Notes: generated from the sequence alone by a model not told the origin. 31,805 bases of DNA from an uncultured Pseudomonadales bacterium (GCA_964489485.1 CAZAZB010000001.1:1-31805); one strand, 5' to 3'; counted from the stretch's first letter, positions 7,941 through 23,719 are shown. A program made the numbers and translations.

Positions 7941-9389
7941 ATGGACAGAACACTGGTCGATTTCGTTAAGGTCCTGCGCACTGCAGAGATCAAGGTGTCG
8001 CCTGCAGAGACGCTTGATGCAATGCAGGCAATCGACCTTGTGGGATATGAAGATCGCCAGTTTCTCAAAAACTCACTCTCTATGGTTCTCGCCAAGAATC
8101 CAGAAGAAAAAGAAGCCTTCGATTCCTGTTTTGATCACTTTTTTACTTTCCAGAAAATATCGAGCAGCCAGCCCGATTCGGGTGAATCGTCAAGTCAAAG
8201 TGATGATGGGGAATTCGATGAGGGCGAAAGTGCCGATGGCAATCGACCTGGCGGTGGTAAGGGCAGTGGACAGGGATCAGGACAGGGCGGCGGCGAGGCG
8301 TCAGAAGAAGATCATTCGCTAGCGCCGGAGTCAAAACTTGGCAAACTGCTACTGTCTGGCAATAGAACCGAGCTTACGGTCGCCCTGGCAGAAGCTGGAC
8401 GTGAGGTTGAAGTGAACCAAATCGTGGTCTTCACCCAGAAAGGTCTGTATACCAGAAAGATCATGGATGCCATGGGCCTTAAGGAGCTGCAGGAAGAAAT
8501 TTCTGAACTGCAAGCCCAGGGTGGACGCCCACAAAACACCCTTTCAGCAAAACTCAAACGCGCACGCGATCAGTTAAGGGAACAGGTTCGCGACTACGTT
8601 GAAAAGCAATTTTTCTTGCATGCAGACGAATCGGGTAAACAGCTACGCGAAGAATTGTTAAAAAAAGTAAAGCTGTCCAACCTGGAAAAACGTAATTTCA
8701 AGGATGTTCAGGAAGTCGTATTCAAGATGGCTAAAAAGTTGATCGCCATTCATTCCAAGCGTCGTAAAACCTATAAGCGTGGTCAGTTGGACGTTCGCAA
8801 AACGCTCAGACACAATATGCAATATGATGGCATGTTCTTTGACTTGAAATGGAAGGCTTCGAAAGTTGACCGACCTAAAGTCATGTGTATTTGTGATGTT
8901 AGCGGGTCAGTAAGTAATTACTCACGATTCTTGTTGATGTTTCTCTACAGCCTGGCGGAGATTCTGCCAAAAGTTCGCTCTTTCGCATTCTCATCGGATC
9001 TGGGGGAAGTGACTCGCCTGTTCGAAAGCAGTAGTCTTGAGGATGCGATGGCGAAAACAATGCGTGATTATGGCAACGGGTCCACTGACTATGGGCGCAT
9101 GCTGATGGACTTCAAACACCAGTGCATGAACGATGTTAATAACAAGACCACCATCATTATTCTTGGCGACGCCCGAAACAATTACGGCGACCCTAAATCA
9201 GAGATTCTGCGAGAAATGTATGACAAAGCCAAACGGGTCATCTGGCTCAATCCAGAACCAAAAATGAGCTGGACCGTGGGAGATGCGGAAATGAAAAAGT
9301 ATGCACCTTGCTGCCACCAGACCGAGGTCTGTAACTCACTCATGCATCTTGAACGGGTTGTCTCAAACCTACTGCGTTTTGCAGCATAA
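7941..9389 (+). CDS. VWA-domain protein (CoxE-like)
   Basis: N-terminal FVKVLRTAEIKVSPAETLDA, acidic/Gly linker, LDVRKTLR, MIDAS CDVSGSV, GSTDYG, ILGDARNNY, IWLNPEP. Starts 4 nt after the MoxR stop. Confidence 0.88.
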   Translation: MDRTLVDFVKVLRTAEIKVSPAETLDAMQAIDLVGYEDRQFLKNSLSMVLAKNPEEKEAFDSCFDHFFTFQKISSSQPDSGESSSQSDDGEFDEGESADGNRPGGGKGSGQGSGQGGGEASEEDHSLAPESKLGKLLLSGNRTELTVALAEAGREVEVNQIVVFTQKGLYTRKIMDAMGLKELQEEISELQAQGGRPQNTLSAKLKRARDQLREQVRDYVEKQFFLHADESGKQLREELLKKVKLSNLEKRNFKDVQEVVFKMAKKLIAIHSKRRKTYKRGQLDVRKTLRHNMQYDGMFFDLKWKASKVDRPKVMCICDVSGSVSNYSRFLLMFLYSLAEILPKVRSFAFSSDLGEVTRLFESSSLEDAMAKTMRDYGNGSTDYGRMLMDFKHQCMNDVNNKTTIIILGDARNNYGDPKSEILREMYDKAKRVIWLNPEPKMSWTVGDAEMKKYAPCCHQTEVCNSLMHLERVVSNLLRFAA

Positions 9390-9645
9390 TAGTCATCTCA
9401 ATCTATCGGAAACCCACAAAAACAGTACCAGTTTGCCCATCGAATTTTTTCACCCTGCTATTAAAGTATGATATGGTGCAATTCAATAAAATAAGGAGCT
9501 TGAGTTCCCGGGTAAGGTCTCTATCGAGACTGATCCAGTGACAATCGGATAACCTCTGATTAGCACCATGAATGCGCCGTTTTCAACTATGCGCCGCTGC
9601 AAATGTCGGAATAATCAAGCCATCGTTATATCCTAACGAGACAGC

Positions 9646-10251
9646 ATGACAAAAGAATCCAATTCAGCACTCTTGCATAAAGAGCCGATCTTGCATAAAG
9701 AGCCGATCTTGCATAAAGAGCAACACGGCCGGAAATCCAATCAGTTGAATGATGAGCTGACCAGCCAGCAGATGCATGACCTGGCGACCCCGTTGGTTCG
9801 CTATCTTTCCAAGAAAGTGCGCAATGACGAGGACGCGAATGATCTTGCGCAAGAAGCCTTCCTGCGTATGCATAAATTCCGCCAATCCCGTCAATTAGAC
9901 AACGCGCGTGCATTTCTCTATAAGACAGCGAATAATCTTGTCGTTGACCAGCTGAGACGGGCCAAAGTTCATGATAAATATTTGAGTTTTCAAATGCTTC
10001 CAGAACAATCAGACGAAGAAAATGACAAGTTTGCACCTTCAGCCGAACGTACTGTTCTTGCAGAACAGGAGCTCGACCAAATCTACAAGGTGGTCGATAC
10101 GATGCCCGAAAAAGTACGTCGCGCATTTCTTATGCACCGCGGAAAAGACTTGAGCTACTCGGAAATCGCCTCGGAAATGGAAGTTTCGACCAGTATGGTT
10201 GAAAAGTACATTATTCAGGCGCTTAAGATCCTGCGCAAAGAGATGTCTTAA
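9646..10251 (+). CDS. ECF sigma-70 factor, FecI-like
   Basis: Region 2 DANDLAQEAFLRM...RAFLYKTANNLVVDQLRR. Region 4 MPEKVRRAFLMHRGKDLSYSEIASEMEVSTSMVEKYIIQAL. A later start (ATG near 9772) is possible. Confidence 0.9.
   Translation: MTKESNSALLHKEPILHKEPILHKEQHGRKSNQLNDELTSQQMHDLATPLVRYLSKKVRNDEDANDLAQEAFLRMHKFRQSRQLDNARAFLYKTANNLVVDQLRRAKVHDKYLSFQMLPEQSDEENDKFAPSAERTVLAEQELDQIYKVVDTMPEKVRRAFLMHRGKDLSYSEIASEMEVSTSMVEKYIIQALKILRKEMS
9671..9721 (+). repeat. 18-bp tandem repeat (about 2.8 copies) in the sigma N-terminus
   Basis: TCTTGCATAAAGAGCCGA at 9671 and 9689, partial copy at 9707. Encodes LHKEPI-LHKEPI-LHKEQ. Confidence 0.95.
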
Positions 10252-10356
10252 TTTTCAAATCTTCTCGAACTTGCGCCAGCCTAAAATGTTGCACCCACAT
10301 GGCAGAAACACAACAGGCATACCTTTCTTCAGCCATGGTCCTATCAAGCAGCTATT

Positions 10357-10623
10357 TTATCTAGCAGCACCTGCTTCAAATTTTCGTTTCAGTTCCCACA
10401 TCTGTGGGAATGGGCGTAGTTCATCAAAATCCATCTCTTGCACCACGGACAAATCTTCCCAAAGCTGCATGGTTTCTATAAATGCCTGCTGATGTTCTCT
10501 GGCTTCGCGGAGCCAGGCAAAAAAAGTACCTCTTTCAGTATCCGTCACATTATTGGCCCGAAGCCGCACGAACCATTCGATGGCTCGATCCGACAATGCT
10601 TCAGATACAGGTAACTCTTTCAT
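10357..10623 (-). CDS. Stand-alone FecR N-terminal (DUF4880-like) anti-sigma domain protein, 88 aa
   Basis: ALSDRAIEWFVRLR...ERGTFFAWLREAREHQQAFIETMQLWEDL is the typical FecR-N pattern. GGAG RBS sits 6 nt before the ATG at 10623 (the ORF track starts at TTG 10641). No TM or periplasmic FecR domain before the TAA. Confidence 0.85.
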   Translation of the reverse strand: MKELPVSEALSDRAIEWFVRLRANNVTDTERGTFFAWLREAREHQQAFIETMQLWEDLSVVQEMDFDELRPFPQMWELKRKFEAGAAR

Positions 10624-11170
10624 GAAATACTCCAGGATCAACTGACAACTACTAGGACGCTGAACCGATGAAGATGGTTGCTTCCACCTTGGCTACTTTG
10701 CCCTGGGGATCATTGTTGTCTCTACTGAGTCGCCAGGCGCTACAATAAAGTTCTATCGGGTGGTTAAAAAGCGCTATTCGTCCCGATACCCAATCTCATT
10801 GTCCATGCTTTAAGTGTTCCAGGATCAATTTTGCGCCGAGCACCATCATATAGAAGGTGAACTGACGTCTAGAACTCACATTTTCCCTTAAACACCTCTT
10901 GATGTGCCCCAGAAAGATGCAAAAACATCCCTGAACAAAGACCGGAGTAGCGTGAATTGTATTCACCAATTTGATCAAAATGGAGAGAATTAGTAATAAT
11001 TTAGGCATTTGTTCATTTTTTTTCAGGTATTTTTACTTTTTTACTCATTTTTGTTGTGGGGTTGTGTGAGTTGTTCGTCTTATTAGTTACCAGCGATCCA
11101 ATCGTTGAATGAAACTCTGCGTCTAGCAGAATTCAAAAAATAAAACATCCGAAGTGATGGGGGATAAAAC

Positions 11171-13999
11171 ATGTTAAAAAGAAAGCCATTATCCGTGGCT
11201 GTAGCGACTGCCTTAGGCGTCGTATCTGCATCAGGCATTTTCACCAATACCGCTTACGCGGCTGATGAAATCATGATGGAAGAAGTCGTAGTAACCGGTT
11301 CACGTATTAAGCGTGCCGACCTTAATGCTGTAAGTCCATACACAATTGTTACCGGGGAAGAATTTAGCCTTTCTGGCATCATTAATGTTGAACAAAAAAT
11401 GGCAGAACTGCCTCAGACGCTACCCAGCTTTGGACCTAGTTCAAACAATCCGGGTGATGGTACTGCACGAGTCGACCTGCGCGGCCTGGGTAGTTCACGT
11501 ACTTTGGTTCTGGTTAACGGCCGCCGTTATATTCCAGCAACACAGTCTGGCGTTGTCGACCTCAACACGATTCCGGGCACGCTTATTAAGCAAGTCGACG
11601 TCCTGACAGGTGGTGCATCTGCAGTATATGGCTCCGATGCATTGGCAGGTGTTGTGAACTTTCAACTAGTTGATGACTTCGAAGGTGTTGAATTCACCGG
11701 CTTGTACGACATCACGTCTGATGGCGATGCTGAAAAGTACAACATGGACATCACCCTGGGTGGTAACTTTGATGACGGACGGGGTAACGCTGTTATCTAT
11801 GCTTCCTACTCAAAGCGTGAAGCACTCTTCCAGGGCGATCGAAAGTTCTCAAACCTGGCATTAACTGAAGATGAAGACGATGCTGGCAATCCTATTTTGG
11901 TCGGTGGTGGTTCTTCCGGTGTACCGGGGACACGTATTTTCGGCGGCGGCACTTTGCCCGATGGCTCGGACCTGGGTACTTTTGGTCCAAATGGCGAAGG
12001 ACTAAACTGGATTGAGCCAACAAGCCGATTCAACTATGCACCTGACAACTTCCTTCAGTTGCCACAAGAACGGTACCTGGTCTCTGCAATGGGTCACTAC
12101 GACATCGCCGAGAATGTACGTGCTTACACTGAAGTCACTTATTCTTATAACCTGGTCCCACAGGAATTGGCGCCTACGCCAGCTTTCACCACGGTGAACA
12201 TCAATCCTGAATCGCCTTTCTTCGCCGCTGACGCTGCTGCAGCATTGCGAACACTCCGCACTGACCCAACTGATGCCACGGAAAATGTGGAAGCATTTAT
12301 TGGTCGTCGAATGGTTGAAAATGGCTCACGTCAGTCTATCGATACAAGAAGCGCATTCCGCATTCTTGTTGGTCTGGACGGTGATTTTAATGATAAGTGG
12401 TCATTTGATACCTACTACAGTCTTGCCCACCTCGAAAATAGCAATGCGTTAAATAACGACGTATCCGCTTCCCGATTTGTCCAGGGCGTTCTGGTTACTG
12501 ATGACGGTACTGCGTGTCAGGATCCTTCCGGTGGCTGTGTACCGATTAACATATTTGGTGCCGGTAATATCTCGCAGGCTGCGATCGACTATGTCAACAT
12601 CAGCGCCACAAACCTCACCAATATTGAACAGGAAGTTATTCTTGCCAGCGTCTTCGGTGAAATAGCGACATTGCCAGCTGCTAGCGACCCAGTATCAGTT
12701 GTTTTGGGTTACGAGCATCGTGCAGACAATTCAAGCTTCAGACCTGATACCTTCCTGGCAACAGGTGATGTTCTTGGATTTAACTCTGGTAAAGCAACCA
12801 AAGGTCGATACAACGCGACTGAATTCTTCGGAGAAGTATCTGCACCCTTGGTACAGGGCCGTTCCGGTGCAGAAGATCTTACCCTCTGGGGCGCGATTCG
12901 AGTTTCGGATTACTCCAACATTGGTAGCGTGACATCTTGGGCAACAGCCATCAACTACTCACCCATCGAAAGCGTTAAGCTGCGAGCGGGTTATCAGGTA
13001 GCGGTACGGGCGCCTAATGTCGCTGAGTTGTTCCTTGGCCAGTCTAACGGCTTCCCAGGTGCAGACGACCCCTGTTCAGTTGACGGCTTCCAGACTGGTA
13101 CTACAAATGCATTGCTATGTACCGCCACTGGCGTTGCAGCAGCAGATGTTGGTGTGTTCACTCAAGCTAACTCTCAGATCGAAGGTCGCTTCGGTGGTAA
13201 CCCAGATCTGAAGGAAGAAACTTCGAACACTTACACCTTCGGTGTTATCTGGCAGCCAATGGCTGGCCTTGATATCAGTGCTGACTACTACAACATTGAA
13301 ATCGAAGATGCGATTAGCGTACTCGGTGGCAGTGTCACCAATGTATTGGACTTGTGCTACAACGTGATTCAGGACGGTGCATCACCTTTTTGCCAGGCGA
13401 TTACGCGTCGTACAGACGGCAACGTTGACTTCGTCAATGTACTCAACTCAAACATTGGCTTGATCGAAACTGATGGTATCGATGTCAATGTTAACTACAA
13501 CACTGATCTTGACTTTGGTATTGGTGGTAACGGTTCTACACTGAGTCTTGCATTTACAAGTAACTTCCTTGGTAACTTTGATGTAACACCTGTTGCAGAA
13601 CTTTCTGATCGAGTTGATGTGTGTGCAGGCCAGTTTGGTAATACCTGTGGCGCTCCACTGACAGACGTTACCTGGAACCTGCGTGCTACCTGGTACTCCG
13701 GTAACTGGACACTTTCTACTCTGGTTCGATACATTGGCGAAAGCGATGACGACCAGATCAAGAATGGTGGTGTTGACAAGGCTACCTTGCCAGCGGCTAC
13801 TATTGATTCAGAGTACTATGTTGACCTGGCTGCGGTATACCAGTTCAATGAAGGGCTTAGCATCAATGTTGGTGTGAACAATATTTTTGATACCACACCC
13901 ACCAGAGTTGGTGATTCTCAGGAACAGGCTAATACCTTCCCTTCTACTTATAGTCTTTTCGGACCTCGTTACTTTGTGGCCGCTTCCTATAAGTTCTAG
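11171..13999 (+). CDS. TonB-dependent outer-membrane receptor (942 aa), no N-terminal signalling domain
   Basis: Signal peptide ending ...TAYA, TonB box EEVVVTGSR immediately after it, plug motifs RTLVLVNGRR and GASAVYGSDALAGVVNF, C-terminal GVNNIFD...GPRYFVAASYKF with terminal Phe. Confidence 0.97.
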   Translation: MLKRKPLSVAVATALGVVSASGIFTNTAYAADEIMMEEVVVTGSRIKRADLNAVSPYTIVTGEEFSLSGIINVEQKMAELPQTLPSFGPSSNNPGDGTARVDLRGLGSSRTLVLVNGRRYIPATQSGVVDLNTIPGTLIKQVDVLTGGASAVYGSDALAGVVNFQLVDDFEGVEFTGLYDITSDGDAEKYNMDITLGGNFDDGRGNAVIYASYSKREALFQGDRKFSNLALTEDEDDAGNPILVGGGSSGVPGTRIFGGGTLPDGSDLGTFGPNGEGLNWIEPTSRFNYAPDNFLQLPQERYLVSAMGHYDIAENVRAYTEVTYSYNLVPQELAPTPAFTTVNINPESPFFAADAAAALRTLRTDPTDATENVEAFIGRRMVENGSRQSIDTRSAFRILVGLDGDFNDKWSFDTYYSLAHLENSNALNNDVSASRFVQGVLVTDDGTACQDPSGGCVPINIFGAGNISQAAIDYVNISATNLTNIEQEVILASVFGEIATLPAASDPVSVVLGYEHRADNSSFRPDTFLATGDVLGFNSGKATKGRYNATEFFGEVSAPLVQGRSGAEDLTLWGAIRVSDYSNIGSVTSWATAINYSPIESVKLRAGYQVAVRAPNVAELFLGQSNGFPGADDPCSVDGFQTGTTNALLCTATGVAAADVGVFTQANSQIEGRFGGNPDLKEETSNTYTFGVIWQPMAGLDISADYYNIEIEDAISVLGGSVTNVLDLCYNVIQDGASPFCQAITRRTDGNVDFVNVLNSNIGLIETDGIDVNVNYNTDLDFGIGGNGSTLSLAFTSNFLGNFDVTPVAELSDRVDVCAGQFGNTCGAPLTDVTWNLRATWYSGNWTLSTLVRYIGESDDDQIKNGGVDKATLPAATIDSEYYVDLAAVYQFNEGLSINVGVNNIFDTTPTRVGDSQEQANTFPSTYSLFGPRYFVAASYKF

Positions 14000-14035
14000 A
14001 GATCGTCATTAGTGCTAGTGTTTTTGACACGATAG

Positions 14036-14065
14036 AAAACGGCGGGTTATCCCGCCGTTTTTTTT
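14036..14065 (+). terminator. Rho-independent terminator after the TBDR
   Basis: AAAACGGCGGG-TTAT-CCCGCCGTTTT, with T8 at 14058-14065. Confidence 0.9.
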
Positions 14066-14081
14066 GGATGTATAATAAGTT

Positions 14082-15932
14082 ATGCCTGCTAGCCAACAAA
14101 TTCGCTTTCAACAATTGCTGCAACAGCTATTTACCTCAGTTCAAAATAGCGATCCACTCGCGCTCCAAAAAATCCTCACTCTCCTGGAAAAAAACCCGAA
14201 AGAACCCAACCTTCTGCACCTGGCAGGGCTTGCCTCTCTAAATACAGGGGATTATCAACGGGCCGTGGACTACTTAACACGCTCACTCGATAGCCATTCA
14301 CAGCAGCCTGACGTACAAAATAATCTGGCAAATGCCTTTAAAGAACTGGGAGACCTGGAAAGTGCCGAGACTCAGTACAAATCCGCCATCACCCTTAATC
14401 CCCAATATCAGGAAGCGTGGAAAAACCTCGGCCTGCTACAAATTTCCATGGAGCTTCACGATGAGGCAGAAGACTCTTTACGACGGGCAATAAGTTTAAG
14501 CCCTCGAGATGTCGGCGCCCTGACCGCTTTAGGCAACATATACAAGGAACAAGAGGCGTTCGAAAAGGCTATTACCACTTACCAGCAAGCGCTTCAAATT
14601 GACCCGAATTATGTGAATGCCCTGCATAACATGGGCCTGGCCTACAAGCTTCTAGAGAAAGCTGACGAGGCAATCGCCTGCTACCAACGTGCTCAGGAAA
14701 TTGCGCCCGGAGTCGCTGAAATCGACTTTAACTATGGCAATGCCCTTTATGAATCTGGTCAACACGAACAAGCCGAGCGCCTCTACCTAAGTGCCATTCG
14801 TAAGAACCCTCATTTTGAATTGGCTCACGAGACATTAAGTGAGTTCTATTGGCAGTCAGGGGAACCCGATAAGATTGAAAATAGCTACCGGGAAGCGATC
14901 AAATCGTCGCCAGGGCACACCGGGCTCCGGCTGTCTTTTATCAATATGTTAATCGCCGTTAACCGTCATAGTACGGCACAATCGATCGTCGAGGACTCAC
15001 TCAAACAGGAGATCACGCCGGAACTCTTACACGCTCAGGGTAGACTGTTCGCTAACGAAATGGACTACGACAATGCCAGAAGTACCATGGAGAAAGCCCT
15101 TCAGAAGTCATTCTCTCTGGATATTGCGCAAGATCTCATCCGGCTCTACATACTCATTGGCAACTATCATCAGGCGCTCGATCTGCTGGTAAAGGCGCAG
15201 TTGTTGAAACCAGAAGATCAATTGAATTGGGCGCTCAAAGGACTGTGTTGGCGGTTACTTGAAGACGATCGTTACCACTGGCTGATAGACTATCAAGCCT
15301 ATGTTCGAGGCTACACACTTCCCACGCCGCAAGGATATGCCAACCTTGCTGACTTTATGGAAGAATTGAAATCGGTGTTGTTAGGTATGCATACAACAGA
15401 TCTTGAACCCTCACGACAGACATTGAAGCATGGCACACAGACGCCGGGCAGATTACTGCACAAGCCCCACCCTGTTATCCAATCGTACAAGGCTTCGCTC
15501 ACAGAGGCAGTTCAGGAATACATTTCTACCTTCCCTCAGGATGACGCGCATCCGTTACTCAGAAGAAAGAGTGAAGACTTCAGTTTTTCCGGGTCATGGT
15601 CTGTGAAGCTCAAATCAAGTGGTTTCCATATTAATCACGTACACCCGGAAGGCTGGATCAGTTCTGCATGCTATATATCACTTCCGGAAACCATGTCTCT
15701 TGAGCACAGGTCCATTGAAAACAGGTCCGCAGAAGACGGAGACAGTGGTTGCATCAAATTTGGGGAGAGTCCGCTCGGTCTGGGCGAGAGAGAAGTTATC
15801 GAACGGGTCATCCGACCCGAACCTGGCTTGATGGCATTTTTCCCATCCTACACCTGGCACGGTACATTCGATTTTGAGTGTGATGAGGGCGACTATCGAA
15901 TGACCGCCCCATTTGATGTTGTACCAGTCTAA
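14082..15932 (+). CDS. TPR-repeat protein with C-terminal putative Fe(II)/2OG oxygenase domain (TIGR02466-like)
   Basis: Many TPRs (e.g. NNLANAFKELGDLESAETQYKSAITLNP). C-terminal QTLKHGTQT, SWSVKL...GFHINHVHPEGWISSACYI, FFPSYTWHGT, RMTAPFDV. Confidence 0.85.
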   Translation: MPASQQIRFQQLLQQLFTSVQNSDPLALQKILTLLEKNPKEPNLLHLAGLASLNTGDYQRAVDYLTRSLDSHSQQPDVQNNLANAFKELGDLESAETQYKSAITLNPQYQEAWKNLGLLQISMELHDEAEDSLRRAISLSPRDVGALTALGNIYKEQEAFEKAITTYQQALQIDPNYVNALHNMGLAYKLLEKADEAIACYQRAQEIAPGVAEIDFNYGNALYESGQHEQAERLYLSAIRKNPHFELAHETLSEFYWQSGEPDKIENSYREAIKSSPGHTGLRLSFINMLIAVNRHSTAQSIVEDSLKQEITPELLHAQGRLFANEMDYDNARSTMEKALQKSFSLDIAQDLIRLYILIGNYHQALDLLVKAQLLKPEDQLNWALKGLCWRLLEDDRYHWLIDYQAYVRGYTLPTPQGYANLADFMEELKSVLLGMHTTDLEPSRQTLKHGTQTPGRLLHKPHPVIQSYKASLTEAVQEYISTFPQDDAHPLLRRKSEDFSFSGSWSVKLKSSGFHINHVHPEGWISSACYISLPETMSLEHRSIENRSAEDGDSGCIKFGESPLGLGEREVIERVIRPEPGLMAFFPSYTWHGTFDFECDEGDYRMTAPFDVVPV

Positions 15933-15980
15933 ATCGTACCGGTCTAAGCTGTACCGGTCTAAATCGTGCCAGTCTAAATC
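15921..15980. repeat. 4 x 15-bp tandem repeat spanning a stop codon
   Basis: GTACCAGTCTAAATC, GTACCGGTCTAAGCT, GTACCGGTCTAAATC, GTGCCAGTCTAAATC. The first unit encodes V-P-V-stop of the upstream gene. Confidence 0.9.
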
Positions 15981-15983
15981 CCG

Positions 15984-16709
15984 TTATGGTAAAGCCGGGT
16001 CTACGCCCTTTCTTAACCAACCTGTGATGGCATAACGCGGTGCACCGGCAAAAGGTGCGACATATGCCACTGAATGCTGCTGCGGTACCTTCAATATGTT
16101 CAATGCATTAAATGTCGGCGAAAATGCTTCCTTGATGCCTCCATTGTGGTCCATGAACTGTAAGGCGCCACCCCAATTCGCATTCCAGTCGGGCGTTAAA
16201 TTTAGAATATAGGCCGCGAGCCTATTCTTACCGGCAACATTGTCATCATGTGAGGTCAGAAAATGACCCGGTAGAAAACAGGTTGCCTGGGCGTCTGCAA
16301 ATGCTATTTCCGGCATATCAAGCGCCTCGCGGAGATAGCCCAGAAAAACCTCGCTATTCAAAAACTCGAATATCTTATTCAAAAAACTGTCCGGCAATAA
16401 TTTTTGATGGTAGATGTCATAGATGGGCACAGATCGGTAAAGATACTGAAAATCATTCGTTGCCTGGGTATGCACAATATTCAGGAAATCAGCTTTCTGT
16501 TCCTGATTCCACAAAGACTCCGATGCAGCGTCAATATCCACATGTTTCCCATTTTGATTAAAAACCAGATTCCATTTTTCTTGATGGCACAAGGTTTCGT
16601 AAATCTTATGTGCAGCATCAGGCGTCAGAAGATTGGGTATGTGGACCCGACCCTGTTCCTTAAATTTTGTCCGGTAGGGTTCTGGTTGGAGTTCGCTGGA
16701 TAATTTCAT
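15984..16709 (-). CDS. Fe(II)/2OG-dependent dioxygenase (prolyl-hydroxylase-like)
   Basis: AQATCFLPGHFLTSHDD (HxD), AYILNLTPDW...WGGALQF, PTFNALNIL, distal His in QHSV, RYAITGWL. Confidence 0.9.
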   Translation of the reverse strand: MKLSSELQPEPYRTKFKEQGRVHIPNLLTPDAAHKIYETLCHQEKWNLVFNQNGKHVDIDAASESLWNQEQKADFLNIVHTQATNDFQYLYRSVPIYDIYHQKLLPDSFLNKIFEFLNSEVFLGYLREALDMPEIAFADAQATCFLPGHFLTSHDDNVAGKNRLAAYILNLTPDWNANWGGALQFMDHNGGIKEAFSPTFNALNILKVPQQHSVAYVAPFAGAPRYAITGWLRKGVDPALP

Positions 16710-16729
16710 TGATTTATTTCATTCCCTGC

Positions 16730-16785
16730 TTCGAAAAAAATGGTTTCGAAATAATGGTGTTTCGAAATAACGGTTCCGAAAAACG
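16730..16785. repeat. About 15-bp-period array of TTCGAA palindromes in a divergent promoter region
   Basis: TTCGAAAAAAATGGT, TTCGAAATAATGGTGT, TTCGAAATAACGGT, TCCGAAAAACG starting at 16730, 16745, 16761, 16775. Confidence 0.8.
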
Positions 16786-16991
16786 CCTCTACAATATTAA
16801 GCTTGAGACTGTTTTTGAAAATTTGTCCTGTCTCTGACACTCATTCAAAAACACAGGGAGATCATCAATCGGCGATTTTGTATGGCCATTCCTCAACTGC
16901 TAACATTACAAGAGAATCGAAATGTTAGAAACAGAAACTTCGTGTGTACAGCTGCCTGAGAGACCAGACAGCTGTGCGAAAGGCTCCGCAC

Positions 16992-18908
16992 ATGTCATCA
17001 GATATTCAGCAGGCAGAAACTGCACATCAAAAGGGTTTTCTTGAAGAAGCTAAACGGCTCTATTCGGACATATTGAACAATAACTCAGATAATGTTGACG
17101 CAATTTATGGATTAGGGACCCTGGCGCTACAACAGAATAACCTGCAAGACGCTGAGAGACTCCTCGCCAAAGCACTGACACTTGAACCCAGCGCCGCCGA
17201 CATTGCATTTAACTATGCGCTTTGTTTGAATAAATCGAAAAAATCTAACGAGGCAATAAAGGCAGCCACTCAATCCCTGAAGTTTTGTGGTACCGATGAA
17301 GTGTTATCACGAACTGCATGCCAGCTCTTACTAACGCTCAATCAACCAAAATTCGTAGTGGAACACTTTTCCCGTTCAAAACATCATCAAACCAGCAGCC
17401 TGATCGTTTTGGCAAAAGCACAGGGTGCTATGGGCAATTGGGACAAATCCGTTTCTTTACTACGCAAGCTCTTCCTTCATCATCCAGATGAAGCGCCAAT
17501 AGCCAAAGAACTATCACAAGCCGCTGCCCGGCTACGTGACTACCCCCTGGCAATAGAGAGTTTCGGTCACTATATGGGCCTCATCTCACCCGGTTACCTG
17601 GACCATCTACAATTTTCTGACCTCTATCTGATGGCAAGAGATGTTGACAGTAGCGAAACGCAGCTTTCACTGGCCCACTCAATCGGGGAAGCGTCACTCA
17701 TTGAGAACAACAGTGATTACCATCTACTTAGAGCAAGGCTGGCGCGTTTAAAAGCTGAATATGAGGAAGCACGGGAAAGTAGCTCAAGGGCATTAAACAT
17801 CAACCCTGGCGACGGGCAAGCATGGAGTATTCAATTTGAAACAGCGGAAGATGACGACCTGAAAGGCCTGGTTGACAGGATCAATAATGAGGTCAATTTT
17901 GAGTCCCTAACACCCTACAACCACAGCCTCATCCGCTATACACTCGCTGATATGCAGGTTCGGCTAGGCCGAAAAGCTGATGCTTTTTCCAACTATGCCA
18001 TGGCCAACGACAGCCAACAACAGAGGCTCCAGGCAAAAGGCACAGCTTACGAATTCGTATCTAATGAAAGACGTGTCGACAATATCATTCAGCAATTCTC
18101 GCGCTTACCTTCTTTGGTCATCAATGATCATGCAAGCCAGTCCGCAAATCAGGTAGTCCCAATCTTTGTGTTGGGCATGCCTCGATCAGGTACAACCCTC
18201 GTTGAACGAATGTTGTCTCAAATCGATGGTGTGCTCGCCTGTGGTGAAATTGAGGCAATGGGTTTTCTTGCGACCCGTTACCATCAACAAGTAAATGATG
18301 GCACCATGCCGCTGCCTGTCGACATGACATCACGCCACTGGAGGGGGATCGCGGAACAGTATTTTGATTTTGTTGGCAGCAATGCACACAAAAAGAAGCA
18401 AGACAAAGCTGAACCCAATCTTCAATACATCACGGACAAGATGCCACACAACTTCAATCATGTCGGTATGATTTTGTCTATGTTTCCGACGGTCAAAGTC
18501 ATTCAGCTGCGCCGGGACCCACGGGATGTGTGCCTGTCGATTTACACTCGATACTTTCCGGACGACCACAACTACGCCTGTAACTTCAAAGCGCTAGCTC
18601 ACGCCTACAAGCTAGCCAGGCGGTTGATGGACCATTGGTCAGATCTCGCACCAGATCGTGTCGTAGACGTAAACTACGAAGGCCTGGTGAGCGATCCGCT
18701 GACAGAGGGCAAGAGAATGGTTTCATTCTGCAATCTAGCCTGGTCAGACGAATGTCTTGAGTTCCACAAGGATATCACCTCCAGTTTCACTTTTAGCGAG
18801 ATGCAGGTTCGCGAGGCCGTTCACCAGAATCGCCTGAATCGGTGGAAACAAATGGAGAGCCATATTCAACCCCTGCTACAAGCATTGCAGTCTGAAGGTT
18901 GCCTATAG
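16992..18908 (+). CDS. TPR-repeat PAPS-dependent sulfotransferase (Sulfotransfer_3-type)
   Basis: N-terminal TPRs; 5'-PSB PIFVLGMPRSGTTLVERML; ITDKMPHNF; 3'-PB RRDPRDVCLSIY; VNYEGLVSDP; SEMQVR. ATG 16992 preferred over the GTG start at 16944. Confidence 0.92.
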   Translation: MSSDIQQAETAHQKGFLEEAKRLYSDILNNNSDNVDAIYGLGTLALQQNNLQDAERLLAKALTLEPSAADIAFNYALCLNKSKKSNEAIKAATQSLKFCGTDEVLSRTACQLLLTLNQPKFVVEHFSRSKHHQTSSLIVLAKAQGAMGNWDKSVSLLRKLFLHHPDEAPIAKELSQAAARLRDYPLAIESFGHYMGLISPGYLDHLQFSDLYLMARDVDSSETQLSLAHSIGEASLIENNSDYHLLRARLARLKAEYEEARESSSRALNINPGDGQAWSIQFETAEDDDLKGLVDRINNEVNFESLTPYNHSLIRYTLADMQVRLGRKADAFSNYAMANDSQQQRLQAKGTAYEFVSNERRVDNIIQQFSRLPSLVINDHASQSANQVVPIFVLGMPRSGTTLVERMLSQIDGVLACGEIEAMGFLATRYHQQVNDGTMPLPVDMTSRHWRGIAEQYFDFVGSNAHKKKQDKAEPNLQYITDKMPHNFNHVGMILSMFPTVKVIQLRRDPRDVCLSIYTRYFPDDHNYACNFKALAHAYKLARRLMDHWSDLAPDRVVDVNYEGLVSDPLTEGKRMVSFCNLAWSDECLEFHKDITSSFTFSEMQVREAVHQNRLNRWKQMESHIQPLLQALQSEGCL

Positions 18909-18944
18909 CGTAGCCAGCCTATAGCGCAGGTTACTGGCCGGATT

Positions 18945-20198
18945 CTACTTCTCTATTTCTTCGGCGGCAGGCACCCTTCTCTGCGCCAACCATCTTGTTT
19001 TCTGCTGAAAAGAACGCTGTACAGCCTGCTGTTCTTCGATGGAGAGATCTGGATGCCAGATAGAGAATATGAGCACAATCCGCTCAGTTGAACTACCGTT
19101 ATAGGCCTCATGGTCAAAGGTATCATCAAAGACAACCGGTACCCCTTCTTGCCAGTGATGGGTCTCATCGCCAACCCTGAGCCAGCAGTCCTCCGGGACA
19201 ATCAGGGGCAAGTGAACGGTTAGACTATGATTAGACAAGCCATAGTGTGGCTTGATGTGTTGGCCTGCTTTGAGGAGGGAGAAAAAAATCTCGAAGGGAT
19301 CATTTTGCAAACAATAAAACGGAATACTCTGCATCCTGGTATTTCCATATTGCGCCTTACTTTCAGATGTACCGGCAAGCCCAAGGGCCGCGAGGGTTTC
19401 AGGAAAAGCAGATGCCACAGGGTGATTTAACGCACCTTCCTTGTATAGATCCAGCGCTGTCCAGTTGAGAGAGCCAACGAGCGGACCAAACCCCTGATCC
19501 AGTTTTATGCCTTCAGGTAGATAGGGTCTACCTTCATCTCGAATATGTGGAAGAACCGCCAACAGCTCCTTCTTGATGACCGGGGCCGCAGCCTCCAATT
19601 TTTTCAACCACAACCACGTCGCCTCATGTTTTTTCGGGGACTCAAATGCTTTCGCTTCAATATCGGGAATGTAAAATAATTGCGGTCTTTGTTTCGCCTT
19701 GGCGAATGGGTATGGCTGGTCGTGTGTTCGCGTCCAGATTGATTGTCTGATTCGAGTGCAATGTTCACCATCACCGACAGACGCCCGGTGCATTGCAGAC
19801 AAACTTACCCGCACCAACTTATTCGCAGCGGCTGAGCGATTGCGGGTTTCTAACGATTGCTCCTTGTCTTGCCAAAGGGACAGAGTTTCCTCGCTCAGTT
19901 CTGTCAACAACGAATATATCGACAAGGCTTCTTCGAGGAAATTGTGAGACTGGAACCAGTAGCCGGTATAGAGATAAGCGAGGGGATTGTTCGGTGCAAG
20001 AGAAAGGCATTTAAGATAGCTATCTCTTGCGCCAACATCCGTGCCTATTTGTTCTTCAATGACTGCCAGCCGATAGTAGATTTCAGCATCCATACGTTCC
20101 CGCGACAACTGGCGTAGTCGTCTCAATCCAAGCTGGTTTCTTCCTTCTGCGAATGCCTCATCGACCTGTTCTATCAGGTCCTTCTGTCGTTCACCCAT
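18945..20198 (-). CDS. TPR + aspartyl/asparaginyl beta-hydroxylase-domain protein
   Basis: FFSLLKAGQHIKPHYGLSN...VHLPLIVP...WQEGVPVVFDDTFDHEAYN...RIVLIFSIWHPDL (two-His AspH pattern). TPR-like helices at the N-terminus; no TM helix. Confidence 0.9.
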   Translation of the reverse strand: MGERQKDLIEQVDEAFAEGRNQLGLRRLRQLSRERMDAEIYYRLAVIEEQIGTDVGARDSYLKCLSLAPNNPLAYLYTGYWFQSHNFLEEALSIYSLLTELSEETLSLWQDKEQSLETRNRSAAANKLVRVSLSAMHRASVGDGEHCTRIRQSIWTRTHDQPYPFAKAKQRPQLFYIPDIEAKAFESPKKHEATWLWLKKLEAAAPVIKKELLAVLPHIRDEGRPYLPEGIKLDQGFGPLVGSLNWTALDLYKEGALNHPVASAFPETLAALGLAGTSESKAQYGNTRMQSIPFYCLQNDPFEIFFSLLKAGQHIKPHYGLSNHSLTVHLPLIVPEDCWLRVGDETHHWQEGVPVVFDDTFDHEAYNGSSTERIVLIFSIWHPDLSIEEQQAVQRSFQQKTRWLAQRRVPAAEEIEK

Positions 20199-20351
20199 GA
20201 GTTCCGATTTTCATGCCTCTATTCATTTCCGTGTCGGTCATTAACCCTACAATAATAATGACAAACAGACAGCCAATTCAGGTCAATAGATTCAATCATA
20301 TACTCGAATTTGGGTTAGTATTCAGAAAACTTGGACATCGCACAGGCAAGC

Positions 20352-21266
20352 ATGACAGAAACAGATCAATGGTCTGACTATTGGAATAATGAAGGTACTT
20401 CCGGGGAAGTCTTTATTAACAAATCAGGCGAGCGGCACCCGCAGCTAGCCGCCTACTGGCATACACAAATTTCTGGTGCCCACTCTACCTCTCGAATCAT
20501 CGACCTCGCCTGTGGGGCTGGCTCGATCTATTCCGACCTACACAAAGAACACACCTTCTCCTTATTCGGCGTGGACCTTTCCGTGGATGGTCTACATCTT
20601 TTAAAGCATCGATTGCCAAACACCTCAACAGTGGTCTGCTCTATTACAGAGTTGCCCTTTCCTGAGCGAAGTTTTGACCTGGTAGTGAGTCAGTTCGGGA
20701 TTGAGTATGGTGGCGCGACTGCTTTTGCCGACGCCGCCAGCCTGGTGAACAGCGGCGGGCGAATCGCGATGCTCTGCCATATTGAAGATGGCTATATTGA
20801 TGCAAGAAACAAGCTTCACCTTGGTGGTGCAAAATTGATCATCGAGTCTGAATTTATTCCCAGGGCAGTCGAACTGGCGAAGTCGGCTTTCGCCAGAGAA
20901 CCGGCAAGACGACAAAAAGCTGAAACTGAGTTTACGCAGGCCAATGATCAAATTGCCTCAATTCTGGAACAGAATCCTGGCGGCATTCACAGCCATGTCT
21001 ATTTTGGTTTTAAGCAATTGTTCCAGCGTGTCGCGCACTATGATGAATCTGACATAACAACGTGGCTGGAGACCATTCATGCGGATGTAAACAAAACGAT
21101 TGCCAAACTAGCCACTATTACTGATGTCGCACTTTCCGAGCATTCAATAAAACAGATATGCCGTGATTTCACCCATTCAGGGCTTCGAAAGGTAGGCTAT
21201 TCTCCCTTTGCGATATCAGGCAACAGTCTTCCCATCGCCTGGAGCATCACTGCAGAACGCCCCTAA
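20352..21266 (+). CDS. Class I SAM-dependent methyltransferase
   Basis: WSDYW N-terminus, motif I IIDLACGAGS, GVDLS, LPFPERSFDLVVSQFGIEYG. ATG 20352 preferred over TTG 20331. Confidence 0.85.
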   Translation: MTETDQWSDYWNNEGTSGEVFINKSGERHPQLAAYWHTQISGAHSTSRIIDLACGAGSIYSDLHKEHTFSLFGVDLSVDGLHLLKHRLPNTSTVVCSITELPFPERSFDLVVSQFGIEYGGATAFADAASLVNSGGRIAMLCHIEDGYIDARNKLHLGGAKLIIESEFIPRAVELAKSAFAREPARRQKAETEFTQANDQIASILEQNPGGIHSHVYFGFKQLFQRVAHYDESDITTWLETIHADVNKTIAKLATITDVALSEHSIKQICRDFTHSGLRKVGYSPFAISGNSLPIAWSITAERP

Positions 21267-21320
21267 GGTGAGTCCCGCACCTCTAACTGAACTCAAGTTG
21301 TACTACACCCTAGAGTTTTC

Positions 21321-21971
21321 CTAATTGACCCTTCGCACTTTGACCAGTTTACGGACACCTTCAATCTTTAGATTAAAGGACCCCATGACACCCTTTTCAA
21401 TCTTCACCATTTGGCCGACTTTTATTCGCACTCTCGCATCTTCGACTTCACGCCAGACCTGTCCATTTTCGAGCCTGAAATAGTCTTCACGGCGCGCACT
21501 CTGTGTCACTTCCACAATTCGAGACTCAATAAAGTCCCCGCCTTTCTTGATGGGAGGACGTTTACCAAAATCCTTTTCTTTATCCTTGGAAATAGTGCCG
21601 GTTGAAGTGCTGGCTGATTCGCTGGCTGATTCGCTGGCTGAGGTGCTGGCTGAAGCACTAGTAGGCGTCCTGACAGACTTTATATCATCTGAAATCACCA
21701 ATATTGTCGATACCTCAGAGGTCTGCTCTTTCGGTTTTATGCTAACCCCATTCGTGGGCATGTTGGATTGGCTGGATGCTGCACCTAATGTTTCATCATA
21801 ACAATGTAATCTCGCCGATGATGATCCGTGTTTACGACAGGCAAGCATCATGTCATAACAGGCTAATTTATCAGTATCTTCAGAGGTTAGGTTACAGGGT
21901 TTCGCCAGGGTCCCCACCGGTAAAAGCGCCCCGGCAATCGAGACAACAATCAGGGATGCAATTCTGTTCAT
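21321..21971 (-). CDS. Exported hypothetical protein: two C-x11-CYD motifs, Ser-rich linker, C-terminal beta-rich domain
   Basis: Sec signal MNRIASLIVVSIAGALLPVGTLA; CNLTSEDTDKLACYD and CRKHGSSSARLHCYD; SASASTSASESASESASTST; FRLENGQVWREV...VKIEKGVMGSF. Confidence 0.8.
   Translation of the reverse strand: MNRIASLIVVSIAGALLPVGTLAKPCNLTSEDTDKLACYDMMLACRKHGSSSARLHCYDETLGAASSQSNMPTNGVSIKPKEQTSEVSTILVISDDIKSVRTPTSASASTSASESASESASTSTGTISKDKEKDFGKRPPIKKGGDFIESRIVEVTQSARREDYFRLENGQVWREVEDARVRIKVGQMVKIEKGVMGSFNLKIEGVRKLVKVRRVN
21609..21656 (-). repeat. 4 x 12-bp coding repeat giving a Ser-Ala-Ser-x tract
   Basis: On the + strand: GCTGGCTGATTC twice, then GCTGGCTGAGGT and GCTGGCTGAAGC. Confidence 0.9.
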
Positions 21972-22111
21972 TCCAATATTTCCCGTTAACGATACTGGCC
22001 TATTTTAGCTGATTTTCGATCACTTGCGATGTCTATCGTCTTGTCGTTCAAGCGACCAACTACATGCTACAATCGAACATTGAATCTGACTTCCAATTGG
22101 GACAGAAATAT

Positions 22112-23719
22112 ATGACGCGACTGGTTATTGCAGCAATAGTTGTGCTCTATGCACAATTGACGGTAGCGCAGGTAGACGCAACATCAGCAGACTATGACAC
22201 CCAAACCATTACCATCGCACTCGCCCAGGAACCACCACAACTTAACGGCATGAAAGCGACTGATCAGGTCAGTATTTTGCTCCTCAGCCATCTGATGGAA
22301 GGACTGGTTCGTTATGACCGCCGCGGCAAGATTGTACCGGGAGTCGCCGAACGTTGGGAGATGGATGACAAGACAGCCACCTTCTGGCTAAGGGACAACG
22401 CACTCTGGAGTGATGGTCAACCAGTGACCGCCCACGATTTTGTTTTCGCCTGGCGCAATGCACTTGATCCGAAAACAGCATCTGAATATGCATTTATTTT
22501 GTATCCACTAAAAAATGGCGAGGCCATCAATCGCGGCGATATGGACCCATCCATGCTCGGCGTTACAGCAGTAGATGATAAGACCCTCAAGGTCGTTTTT
22601 GAACGACCCACCGGCTACTTCATCAAACTGACCGCGTTCACAACCTATTTTCCTGTGAGACAAGACTTCTTCGAATCTCGCGGCGATCACTACGCGGCAG
22701 AACCTGAAGATTTGCTCTACAACGGTCCATTTCGAATGACTGAGTGGACTCATAGTGCATCACTTCGAATGGTGAAGAACGAGAACTATTGGGATAAGGA
22801 AAACATTACCCTCAATGCAATTAATGCAGACTATATCACTGCCGATACCAGGGCACGGCTCAATCTATTTATCGACGGCAAAATTGTCCACACTCGACTC
22901 GATGGGGAGACCTACAAAGATGCCCTCACCCAGAAATTTAGAATTCGTAGATTCACCACTGGTTCTGTTTTCTTTCTGGAATATAACCATCGCCCAGGGC
23001 GAGTCACAGCCAATGTAAACCTTCGCCGCGCCATTCAGTACGTCTTCGACACAAACGAAATGGTTAACAAGGTTCTTGCAACACCCGGCAACCTACCCGG
23101 CGAAAGCCTTTTTCCTGTTTGGCTAAACGGTGTTGAAGACAAATTCCGCCGAGAATACCCGGCAAAGAAGGTTGATCTCGATGTTAAAAAAGCAAAAGAT
23201 TTTCTCGAACTGGCAAAGAAGGAGCTGGAGATAGACAAGCTCCCACCACTTATACTTCTCGTTGGCGATAGCCCAACCGCAGCCAAACAAGCTGAATATA
23301 TGCAAGGTTTACTAAAATCGCGATTGGGGCTTGATGTCAAGATCGATATTCAAACATTCAAACAAAGACTCGCCAAGATGAGCGCTGGAGATTTTGATAT
23401 CGTTGGTGCCGGATGGGGACCTGACTACGACGACGTGATGACATTTGGAGATCTACAGGCTTCGTGGAATCTCAACAATCGTGGCAAATATAATAACCCA
23501 GAATACGATCGACTAGTGCGCGTTGCCATGAACAGCGCCGATGCGAAAGTTCGTATGGATGCCATGGGAAAGCTACAAGACATCCTCTTTGATGATGCCG
23601 TCATTCTGCCGCAATACGAACAAGGCGTCATCTATCTGATGCACCCAAAACTAAAAGGCGTTGTTCGCCGTGTGGTAGGCGCTGACCCTGATTACACATA
23701 CGCCAGGGTTGTAAAATAA
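22112..23719 (+). CDS. oppA: Oligopeptide ABC transporter substrate-binding protein
   Basis: Signal peptide MTRLVIAAIVVLYAQLTVA; EGLVRY, PGVAERW, WSDGQPVTAHDFVFAW, NGPF, GWGPDYDD (family 5 SBP). ATG 22112 preferred over 22064. Confidence 0.92.
   Translation: MTRLVIAAIVVLYAQLTVAQVDATSADYDTQTITIALAQEPPQLNGMKATDQVSILLLSHLMEGLVRYDRRGKIVPGVAERWEMDDKTATFWLRDNALWSDGQPVTAHDFVFAWRNALDPKTASEYAFILYPLKNGEAINRGDMDPSMLGVTAVDDKTLKVVFERPTGYFIKLTAFTTYFPVRQDFFESRGDHYAAEPEDLLYNGPFRMTEWTHSASLRMVKNENYWDKENITLNAINADYITADTRARLNLFIDGKIVHTRLDGETYKDALTQKFRIRRFTTGSVFFLEYNHRPGRVTANVNLRRAIQYVFDTNEMVNKVLATPGNLPGESLFPVWLNGVEDKFRREYPAKKVDLDVKKAKDFLELAKKELEIDKLPPLILLVGDSPTAAKQAEYMQGLLKSRLGLDVKIDIQTFKQRLAKMSAGDFDIVGAGWGPDYDDVMTFGDLQASWNLNNRGKYNNPEYDRLVRVAMNSADAKVRMDAMGKLQDILFDDAVILPQYEQGVIYLMHPKLKGVVRRVVGADPDYTYARVVK

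Follow-up and report, generated by a model that had tools for sequence, protein, structure and literature searches.

The closest described relatives of the locus examined here are gene neighbourhoods known in silico only. Iyer, Abhiman, de Souza and Aravind (NAR 2010) described neighbourhoods that combine a TonB-dependent receptor with SapC, tryptophan halogenase, 2-oxoglutarate (2OG) dioxygenase and sulfotransferase genes, and predicted a siderophore-like metabolite, the hydroxyl groups of which are further methylated or sulfated (PMC2938197). No function has been demonstrated for this kind of neighbourhood, as an earlier note on the present DNA had already remarked. A literature search found no experimental work on PF13759/TIGR02466, on clusters of SapC with receptors, or on sulfotransferases carrying tetratricopeptide repeats (TPRs) and encoded beside receptors. 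The locus lies on a stretch of DNA from an uncultured marine Pseudomonadales bacterium (GCA_964489485.1, CAZAZB010000001.1:1-31805), the whole 31,805 nucleotides of which are called the window below. It comprises a TonB-dependent receptor gene followed by genes for three Fe(II)/2OG oxygenases, a sulfotransferase and a methyltransferase. What is new here is that this cluster is, judged by genome comparison, a dispensable and replaceable island between a von Willebrand factor A (VWA) gene and oppA.

As in the neighbourhoods of Iyer et al., the receptor gene stands beside sulfotransferases and more than one classical 2OG dioxygenase (beta-hydroxylase and Oxy_5-like, the latter possibly phage-type), the distribution is sporadic and marked by lateral transfer, and the adjacency to the receptor is conserved across genomes. 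The orthologous clusters L004, L008 and L009 also have SapC directly after the AspH-like gene, a place held in the window by the methyltransferase gene. Unlike the neighbourhoods described in silico, the window has no SapC, halogenase or JmjC gene and has the methyltransferase and a small periplasmic protein instead; in contrast to what a metabolite would call for, no synthetase or exporter was found.

A second point of comparison is the coupling of a receptor to a single oxygenase. In Caulobacter, the function of the receptor CciT depends strictly on CciO, a cytoplasmic dioxygenase encoded next to it, although the CciT protein is still made without CciO, and both the substrate and the inner-membrane step of this system are unknown (PMC12004947). 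Like CciT-CciO, PiuA-PiuC and Fiu-YbiX, the receptor of the window is genetically coupled to a cytoplasmic oxygenase of the prolyl-hydroxylase fold with no known inner-membrane transporter, and PiuC (9qn0, Z 13.2) is a fold neighbour of its Oxy_5 domain. The resemblance is one of fold and arrangement, since neither the receptor nor the oxygenases are orthologous to those of the three pairs. The locus also differs from CciT-CciO in having five enzymes, three of them fused to TPRs and a sulfotransferase and a methyltransferase included, and no Fur box was found in it.

Enzymes that modify polypeptides form a third group. The hydroxylases and the sulfotransferase of the window share Pfam families and catalytic motifs with human AspH, TPST1/2 and the prolyl hydroxylases (PHD2, OGFOD1 and the Pseudomonas enzyme PPHD), which act on polypeptide residues, mostly in proteins bound for secretion. 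The bacterial enzymes differ in being soluble and cytoplasmic, as predicted from their sequences, and identities are low, with E-values outside AspH ranging from 1e-8 to marginal. Like the RaxX-RaxST system of Xanthomonas, which yields a sulfated ribosomally synthesised and post-translationally modified peptide (RiPP), the locus has a TPST-like bacterial sulfotransferase of the Sulfotransfer_3 type, which in Xanthomonas acts on a peptide. Unlike RaxX-RaxST, neither this locus nor the related loci contain a precursor gene, a peptidase-containing exporter or RaxABC-type secretion genes. AIDA-I, TibA and HMW1 are adhesins that undergo modification by adjacently encoded enzymes (Aah, TibC and HMW1C) while still in the cytoplasm, ahead of Sec export. 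The locus shares with these systems the placing of a surface-protein gene beside cytoplasmic modifying enzymes, but those systems glycosylate.

The six open reading frames (ORFs) of the cluster are intact, and their coordinates, Pfam families and catalytic motifs agree with the earlier note. The features of the island and its right flank are, in window coordinates:

9646..10251, plus strand: FecI-like extracytoplasmic function (ECF) sigma factor (Pfam Sigma70_r2/r4_2; NCBIfam ECF/FecI-like), at the left, conserved end of the island
10357..10641, minus strand: FecR-like anti-sigma factor of 94 residues, N-terminal cytoplasmic domain only, without membrane or periplasmic part
11171..13999, plus strand: TonB-dependent receptor of 942 residues (Pfam Plug and TonB_dep_Rec_b-barrel) with a signal peptide and a TonB box, without an STN signalling domain
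14034..14066, plus strand: intrinsic-terminator-like hairpin and U-run between the receptor and Oxy_5 genes (-24.1 kcal/mol, z -5.3, 0 of 200 shuffles as stable)
14082..15932, plus strand: TPR-Oxy_5 of 616 residues, with about 11 TPRs and a C-terminal 2OG-FeII_Oxy_5 domain (PF13759, E 7.5e-15)
15984..16709, minus strand: prolyl-hydroxylase-like Fe(II)/2OG oxygenase of 241 residues without TPRs (2OG-FeII_Oxy_4/Oxy_3; PF13661 and PF13640, E 9e-20 and 6e-15), called Oxy_3/4 below
16944..18908, plus strand: TPST-like TPR-sulfotransferase (Sulfotransfer_3, E 2e-38, 133 bits); orthologue alignments place the true start probably at the ATG at 16992
18945..20198, minus strand: TPR-AspH, with a short TPR region and an Asp_Arg_Hydrox domain (PF05118, E 2e-36, 125.8 bits against a cut-off of 22.6)
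20331..21266, plus strand: class I S-adenosylmethionine (SAM) methyltransferase (Pfam Methyltransf_25/11), C-terminal half uncharacterised; probable start at the ATG at 20352 from orthologue alignments
21321..21971, minus strand: small exported protein with a signal peptide, a Cys-rich segment, a Ser/Ala/Thr/Glu-rich linker and a conserved C-terminal NGQVW beta domain, at the right end of the island
downstream of the island: oppABCDF (Pfam), part of the chromosomal flank

The flanks are conserved family-wide, with ArsR-methyltransferase, ahcY, tesB, AAA and VWA genes on the left and oppABCDF, nudix, cobT and cobS on the right. The site between them varies among congeners. It is empty in G002 (L047), with a VWA-oppA spacing of about 400 bp, while in G005 (L046) some 2 kb of remnants are left, among them a receptor ORF truncated to 341 residues. 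G003 (L029) and G001 (L044) have another set, consisting of a receptor, a TPR-sulfotransferase, a methyltransferase, a TPR-Oxy_5 and a small exported protein. When the window is aligned to the empty site of G002, homology ends at 9382 and picks up again at 22170, which places the island at about 9390-22063 (12.7 kb), the sigma and anti-sigma pair included. On these comparisons, the genus has a hotspot of replacement at its VWA-oppA junction. Replacement-type flexible genomic islands of marine bacteria usually encode surface structures, and the exchange of whole sets at one chromosomal site among close relatives is a feature that the present island has in common with them.

The history of the inserted set differs from that of its surroundings. 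Flank proteins of G003 and the window are 76-96% identical, whereas identity falls to 44% for the receptor, 31% for Oxy_5 and 28% for the sulfotransferase, and G003 has neither AspH nor Oxy_3/4. The receptor of the window is instead 64-70% identical to those of L004, L008 and L009, which belong to other families. In the promoter region of the receptor gene and the first 60 residues, the congener is closest; from residue 60 on, the plug is 82-93% identical to receptors of other families, as opposed to 55-62% to the congener. This switch suggests that the mature receptor and the enzymes were replaced as a block. Across the genomes compared, receptor and enzymes are thus seen to be inherited, lost and replaced as one unit.

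A functional link to the adjacent oligopeptide transporter was considered and rejected as positional. The opp genes stay in place where the site is empty (G002) or decayed (G005), and in G705 the VWA gene lies directly beside oppA, while the cassette of that genome is located elsewhere. By this comparison, Opp is conserved chromosomal backbone and is not co-inherited with the cassette, so its adjacency is only weak evidence for a peptide route across two membranes.

The earlier note had staked its reading on the co-occurrence of these genes across genomes, and co-occur they do. Receptor, TPR-Oxy_5, Oxy_3/4, TPR-sulfotransferase and TPR-AspH stand in identical order and orientation in L004, a Halieaceae metagenome-assembled genome, and in L008 (G252) and L009 (G221), from other families of the same order. 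Identities to the window are 64-70% for the receptor, as given above, 50-53% for TPR-Oxy_5, 54-58% for Oxy_3/4, 41-46% for the TPR-sulfotransferase and 47-49% for TPR-AspH. In about 20 further loci, some of them from distant families of the class, the arrangement is looser, and receptor and Oxy_5 are joined by subsets of sulfotransferase, AspH, methyltransferase, Oxy_3/4, SapC and a TPR-transglutaminase-like protein. Of the five enzymes, TPR-Oxy_5 has the tightest link to the receptor, which anchors the cassette. Among the 19 loci with a full receptor and an Oxy_5 gene, the latter lies on the same strand and at most 250 bp after the receptor in 13. Pairwise identities of receptors and Oxy_5 proteins correlate across these 19 loci (Mantel r 0.705, a value reached in 0 of 2000 permutations), the related genomes compared being non-independent samples. 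Homologues of the methyltransferase adjoin a receptor or Oxy_5 gene in L009, L012, L013, L015, L029 (60% identity), L032, L033, L035, L036 and L041. With 18 Plug-domain receptors in the 4.45-Mb genome and single copies of the Oxy_5, AspH and methyltransferase genes, adjacency by chance is unlikely.

The spread of the Oxy_5 orthologues is patchy: one is encoded by 4 genomes of a class-wide sample of 400, by 21 of 150 family members and by 2 of the 6 genomes of the genus. The protein database holds 690 TPR-Oxy_5 homologues at E<=1e-10, from Halioglobus, Thalassotalea (T. atypica and T. euphylliae), Colwellia sp., Arenicella xantha, Microbulbifer marinus and others. Several cassettes have further members. 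A protein with TPRs and a transglutaminase-like core (PF01841) is optional in L019 (10908-12101), L010, L015 and L031. In L009, a gene for an M2 peptidase of the angiotensin-converting-enzyme type (PF01401, E 2e-217; L009:2832-4658) lies divergently beside the orthologous receptor gene of G221, and a P450 gene adjoins a related receptor gene in L018. L027 (G756) carries a receptor-rich version of the module, with five receptor genes in 20 kb and SapC, AspH, sulfotransferase and Oxy_5 genes among them.

Equally informative is what does not travel with the cassette. The 113 unassigned ORFs in or beside the cassettes of 24 loci were pooled and scanned against Pfam; no family occurred more than twice, and no inner-membrane transporter, exporter, non-ribosomal peptide synthetase (NRPS), ATP-grasp enzyme, peptidase or precursor gene was recurrent. 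In the window itself, domain and ORF scans found no NRPS or polyketide synthase (PKS), exporter or precursor gene, in line with the earlier note. The region upstream of the receptor gene is conserved with the congener only, as part of the flank. Exported products that recur are limited to the receptor, which is always there, and the small periplasmic protein, present in 9 loci. A RiPP cluster was considered and discarded: neither the intergenic gaps of 37-235 bp nor the region upstream of the receptor gene contain a conserved small ORF, and no recurrent peptidase or ABC exporter was found. A siderophore locus built on an NRPS or an NRPS-independent siderophore (NIS) synthetase was dropped as well, there being no synthetase or exporter domains and no Fur box above chance.

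The catalytic equipment of the enzymes is intact, and they belong to protein-modifying types, as the earlier note had proposed. TPR arrays are found in three of the five enzymes (Oxy_5, sulfotransferase and AspH), and none of the five has a signal peptide or a hydrophobic stretch that could form a membrane helix (maximum Kyte-Doolittle 19-residue mean 1.1), both again as that note had read them. The TPR-AspH has the two-histidine iron site HxG...H ('PHYG...DH') and belongs to PF05118; its closest solved relative is human AspH (E 3e-22), itself a TPR-plus-oxygenase protein. The sulfotransferase carries the motifs GMPRSGTTL, CGE, DKxP (as DKMP) and RDPRD, which align with TPST2 (3ap1), and thereby the features expected of a TPST-like enzyme, namely the 5'-phosphosulfate-binding loop PRSGTT, the 3'-phosphate-binding motif and the catalytic Glu and Lys. 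TPST1/2 are its closest solved relatives (E 1e-8 to 1e-6). In the 241-residue Oxy_3/4 enzyme, HDD...H...R is intact, that is, the HxD...H iron site and the 2OG-binding Arg. Its PDB matches are weak (PPHD (4iw3), OGFOD1 and PHD2); it matches no NCBIfam family and is not PiuC/YbiX. The Oxy_5 domain has HxH...H and RxT instead, within a motif HxxHxH...WHGT...RxT that is invariant across 42 orthologues. This domain, PF13759, may belong with the phage-type (Syn9 gp52/gp54-like) dioxygenases; it matches phrog_81, a phage auxiliary 2OG oxygenase (E 3.7e-10), and tblastn against 50,697 phage records gave no direct phage homologue. The methyltransferase has no close or informative solved relative.

TPR-Oxy_5 was modelled with AlphaFold2. 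The whole protein has a predicted local distance difference test score (pLDDT) of 94.4 and a predicted template-modelling score (pTM) of 0.87. In the model, about 11 repeats form a superhelix that is most like that of OGT, followed by a double-stranded beta-helix domain. Foldseek with the full-length model matched TPR proteins only, and the catalytic domain was therefore modelled alone (pLDDT 92.5). Its fold matches are the PF13759 structures 2rg4 (Z 17.4) and 3bvc (second Foldseek match), both uncharacterised, followed by OGFOD1 (Z 15.3), PPHD bound to EF-Tu (Z 14.8) and PiuC, with PHD and a viral collagen prolyl hydroxylase also among them (Z 14-15 for OGFOD1, PPHD and PHD). This gradient of Z-scores is shallow, and a common fold does not fix the substrate. 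As far as homology can tell, every enzyme bar the methyltransferase points to polypeptide residues as its substrate, and among characterised enzymes, those closest to the hydroxylases and the sulfotransferase (AspH, TPST and the prolyl hydroxylases) all modify proteins.

The receptor reaches no NCBIfam subfamily cut-off, those of the siderophore-receptor subfamilies included, and scores far under the Fiu/CirA/FepA-type cut-offs. Its likeness to solved receptors (BtuB, Cir) is confined to the plug. Assignment of a receptor substrate by homology was dropped on these two grounds. An Rfam scan of the whole window gave no family at the gathering score, and no riboswitch or known RNA was found upstream of the receptor gene. 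A search for Fur boxes returned 8 weak matches, compared with 4.5 expected by chance, and none with <=4 mismatches. The hairpin and U-run after the receptor stop codon were recognised by a folding calculation against shuffled sequences and are unlisted by a terminator consensus scan; being strong, they probably keep the expression of the receptor well above that of the enzymes.

The small exported protein has a hydrophobic N-terminus (Kyte-Doolittle 2.2), matches no Pfam family above threshold and finds only hypothetical proteins in the ESM Atlas. A jackhmmer search detected homologues in 8 further loci (9 with the window), adjoining receptor genes or between them: L010:11202-11687, L015:4251-4709, L020:4339-4812, L026:13952-14629, L029:9291-9869, L031:2451-3002, L032:12347-13000 and L041:2982-3548. 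The homologues have a signal peptide and the conserved C-terminal NGQVW domain in common. The protein of the window has an extra Cys-rich 'RLxCYD' segment, and its Ser/Ala/Thr/Glu-rich linker derives from a 12-nt tandem repeat (21609-21653).

The left end of the island encodes the putative regulators. The ECF sigma factor is 76-78% identical to its counterparts in L029 and L026 and is missing at the empty site. The FecR-like ORF aligns with the N-terminus of the full-length FecR of L015, L019 and L020, and short forms likewise occur in L029 (88 residues) and L026 (102 residues). In L015, L019 and L020, the gene order is ECF sigma factor, full-length FecR, a first receptor, the small protein and then the cassette receptor. 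The sigma-factor gene of the window contains an exact 18-nt tandem repeat (2.8 copies, 9671-9721) that gives N-terminal HKEPIL repeats, and it is overlapped by a minus-strand ORF of 166 residues (9626-10126), which has no family match and looks spurious. Two further tandem arrays lie between enzyme genes. One consists of four 15-nt units (GTACCAGTCTAAATC) at 15921-15980, where the Oxy_5 and Oxy_3/4 genes converge. The second, at 16730-16781 in the divergent promoter region of the Oxy_3/4 and sulfotransferase genes, has about 3.5 14-nt units with the palindrome TTCGAA in each, and could be a regulator-binding array.

The enzymes of the unit are of types that act on polypeptides, and the only proteins that the unit exports are the receptor and the small protein. 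This combination leads us to favour, tentatively, the reading that the targets of the enzymes are exported proteins encoded on the island itself (the precursor of the receptor, the small periplasmic protein or both), tailored before Sec export. Modification of a protein before export was one of the alternatives in the earlier note, and it is the one we prefer with the same reserve. The horizontally exchanged, self-contained accessory island supplies an ECF sigma factor with a truncated anti-sigma factor, one receptor, five soluble enzymes and a small periplasmic protein. The enzymes, three of them tethered to TPRs as polypeptide-binding scaffolds, would act in the cytoplasm on an extended polypeptide that is still unfolded ahead of the Sec machinery. 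The AspH-like and the two prolyl-hydroxylase-like enzymes would introduce hydroxyl groups, and sulfation and methylation would fall to the TPST-like sulfotransferase and the methyltransferase. We infer both the substrate and this order of hydroxylation followed by sulfation or methylation. The outcome would be a customised receptor with an altered ligand site or altered surface epitopes, and the swapping of sets at one site would amount to surface diversification, as with glycosylation and O-antigen islands. The fuller version, in which TPR-tethered enzymes capture the unfolded precursor of a TonB-dependent receptor or its small periplasmic partner, and sets are swapped for ligand specificity or for escape from phages and bacteriocins, is a rather doubtful extension.

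Pre-export tailoring draws on further observations. The modelled TPR superhelix of the Oxy_5 enzyme, OGT-like with its 11 or so repeats, is consistent with a polypeptide substrate, and related cassettes hold the TPR-transglutaminase-like protein as well. Co-inheritance is seen in a window set that is closest to genomes of other families, whereas the congener G003 has a different set. One precedent is the modification of the adhesins AIDA-I, TibA and HMW1. That CciT cannot function without CciO, although it is made, may serve as another (PMC12004947).

Several points weigh against this reading. The receptor showed no conserved target motif, and TPR domains are no proof of a protein substrate. 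We know of no report of a hydroxylated, sulfated or methylated TonB-dependent receptor. Homologues of the TPR-sulfotransferase are also found with no receptor nearby, and in Halocynthiibacter (Rhodobacteraceae) a distant one lies among glycosyltransferase and sugar genes, a setting which implies that substrates need not be uniform in these enzyme families. In the 699-contig draft, no APS kinase (PF01583), the enzyme needed for the sulfate donor 3'-phosphoadenosine 5'-phosphosulfate (PAPS), was found besides a weak P-loop match on contig C65. All five of the cluster-bearing relatives checked have this gene, which makes a gap in the assembly the likeliest reason for its absence. Three TPST-like sulfotransferases are encoded in the genome; the other sulfotransferase, SapC (on C23 and C88) and oxygenase paralogues are on short contigs without receptor genes and are uninformative. 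Finally, receptor and enzymes should co-vary just as much if what the enzymes make or process is the ligand, and co-variation alone cannot separate pre-export tailoring, ligand synthesis and ligand processing.

Synthesis of a ligand is a possible alternative, although we consider it unlikely. The enzymes would build or tailor a self-made siderophore-like or cell-associated ligand from an amino acid or a housekeeping peptide, and the receptor would take this ligand up again. Co-variation of receptor and enzymes together with cassette replacement is also the pattern of pyoverdine loci, marine siderophores commonly bind iron through beta-hydroxy-aspartate, and the sigma factor of the island is FecI-like. 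Iyer et al. predicted such a product for neighbourhoods of this composition (PMC2938197), and it corresponds to 'Model 1' for CciO. The 24 loci, however, have no recurrent scaffold synthetase (NRPS, NIS or ATP-grasp), precursor gene or exporter, the Fur-box matches do not exceed chance, the receptor falls under all siderophore-receptor cut-offs, and small-molecule enzymes do not usually carry long TPR scaffolds.

Processing of an imported ligand is somewhat less probable still. An exogenous peptide-like or modified compound would enter through the receptor, cross the inner membrane by general transport and be transformed, detoxified or catabolised in the cytoplasm, much as the enzymes of Fiu-YbiX, PiuA-PiuC and CciT-CciO have been proposed to transform an imported substrate ('Model 3' for CciO; PMC12004947). 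Opp is adjacent in the window, L004, L026, L029 and L011, and the M2 peptidase of L009 and the P450 of L018 would suit such a role. The earlier note had offered the processing of imported peptides as another option, which has lost ground: Opp is backbone, as the empty site of G002 and the direct VWA-oppA junction of G705 indicate, and no inner-membrane transporter is recurrent in the 24 loci. In addition, sulfation from PAPS and methylation from SAM are costly tailoring steps and not typical of catabolism.

Action of the enzymes on an envelope lipid or glycan, such as hydroxylation of ornithine lipid or lipid A before sulfation or methylation, with the receptor merely sharing a variable surface island, appears improbable. 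The AspH-like domain matches OlsC and LpxO in part, but the scores of 63.7 and 47 bits are far under the respective cut-offs of 450 and 500 bits. The sugar-gene setting in Halocynthiibacter and the usual content of marine replacement islands would fit such a role, whereas the enzymes have no membrane helices, no glycosyltransferase, acyltransferase or flippase is recurrent, and the same-strand pairing and co-divergence of receptor and Oxy_5 would be left unexplained. The notion that unrelated accessory genes simply gathered at an insertion hotspot, suggested by the variable content of the site, the alternating strands and the terminator behind the receptor gene, is very improbable, given that the arrangement of five genes is preserved, strands included, in three genomes from other families although identity is only 41-70%, that receptor and Oxy_5 co-diverge, and that about 20 loci, some in distant families of the class, pair this receptor clade with these gene families.

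Why a cytoplasmic Fe(II)/2OG oxygenase, such as PiuC, YbiX or CciO, should be required by some TonB-dependent receptors of the outer membrane is an open question that bears on cefiderocol resistance. The island is an elaborate relative of this receptor-plus-oxygenase arrangement, in which receptor and enzymes are exchanged as a unit at a fixed site, with no transporter, exporter or synthetase travelling along. Together with the protein-modifying types of the enzymes, this narrows the hypotheses to ones that can be tested in cultured carriers. If the receptor is the substrate, its tailoring would define a class of modification new to bacterial envelope proteins, and bacteria would have a counterpart of the machinery that hydroxylates and sulfates proteins in the animal secretory pathway. 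If receptors are indeed tailored in this way, the dependence of CciT/PiuA/Fiu-type receptors on adjacent dioxygenases could share the same basis.

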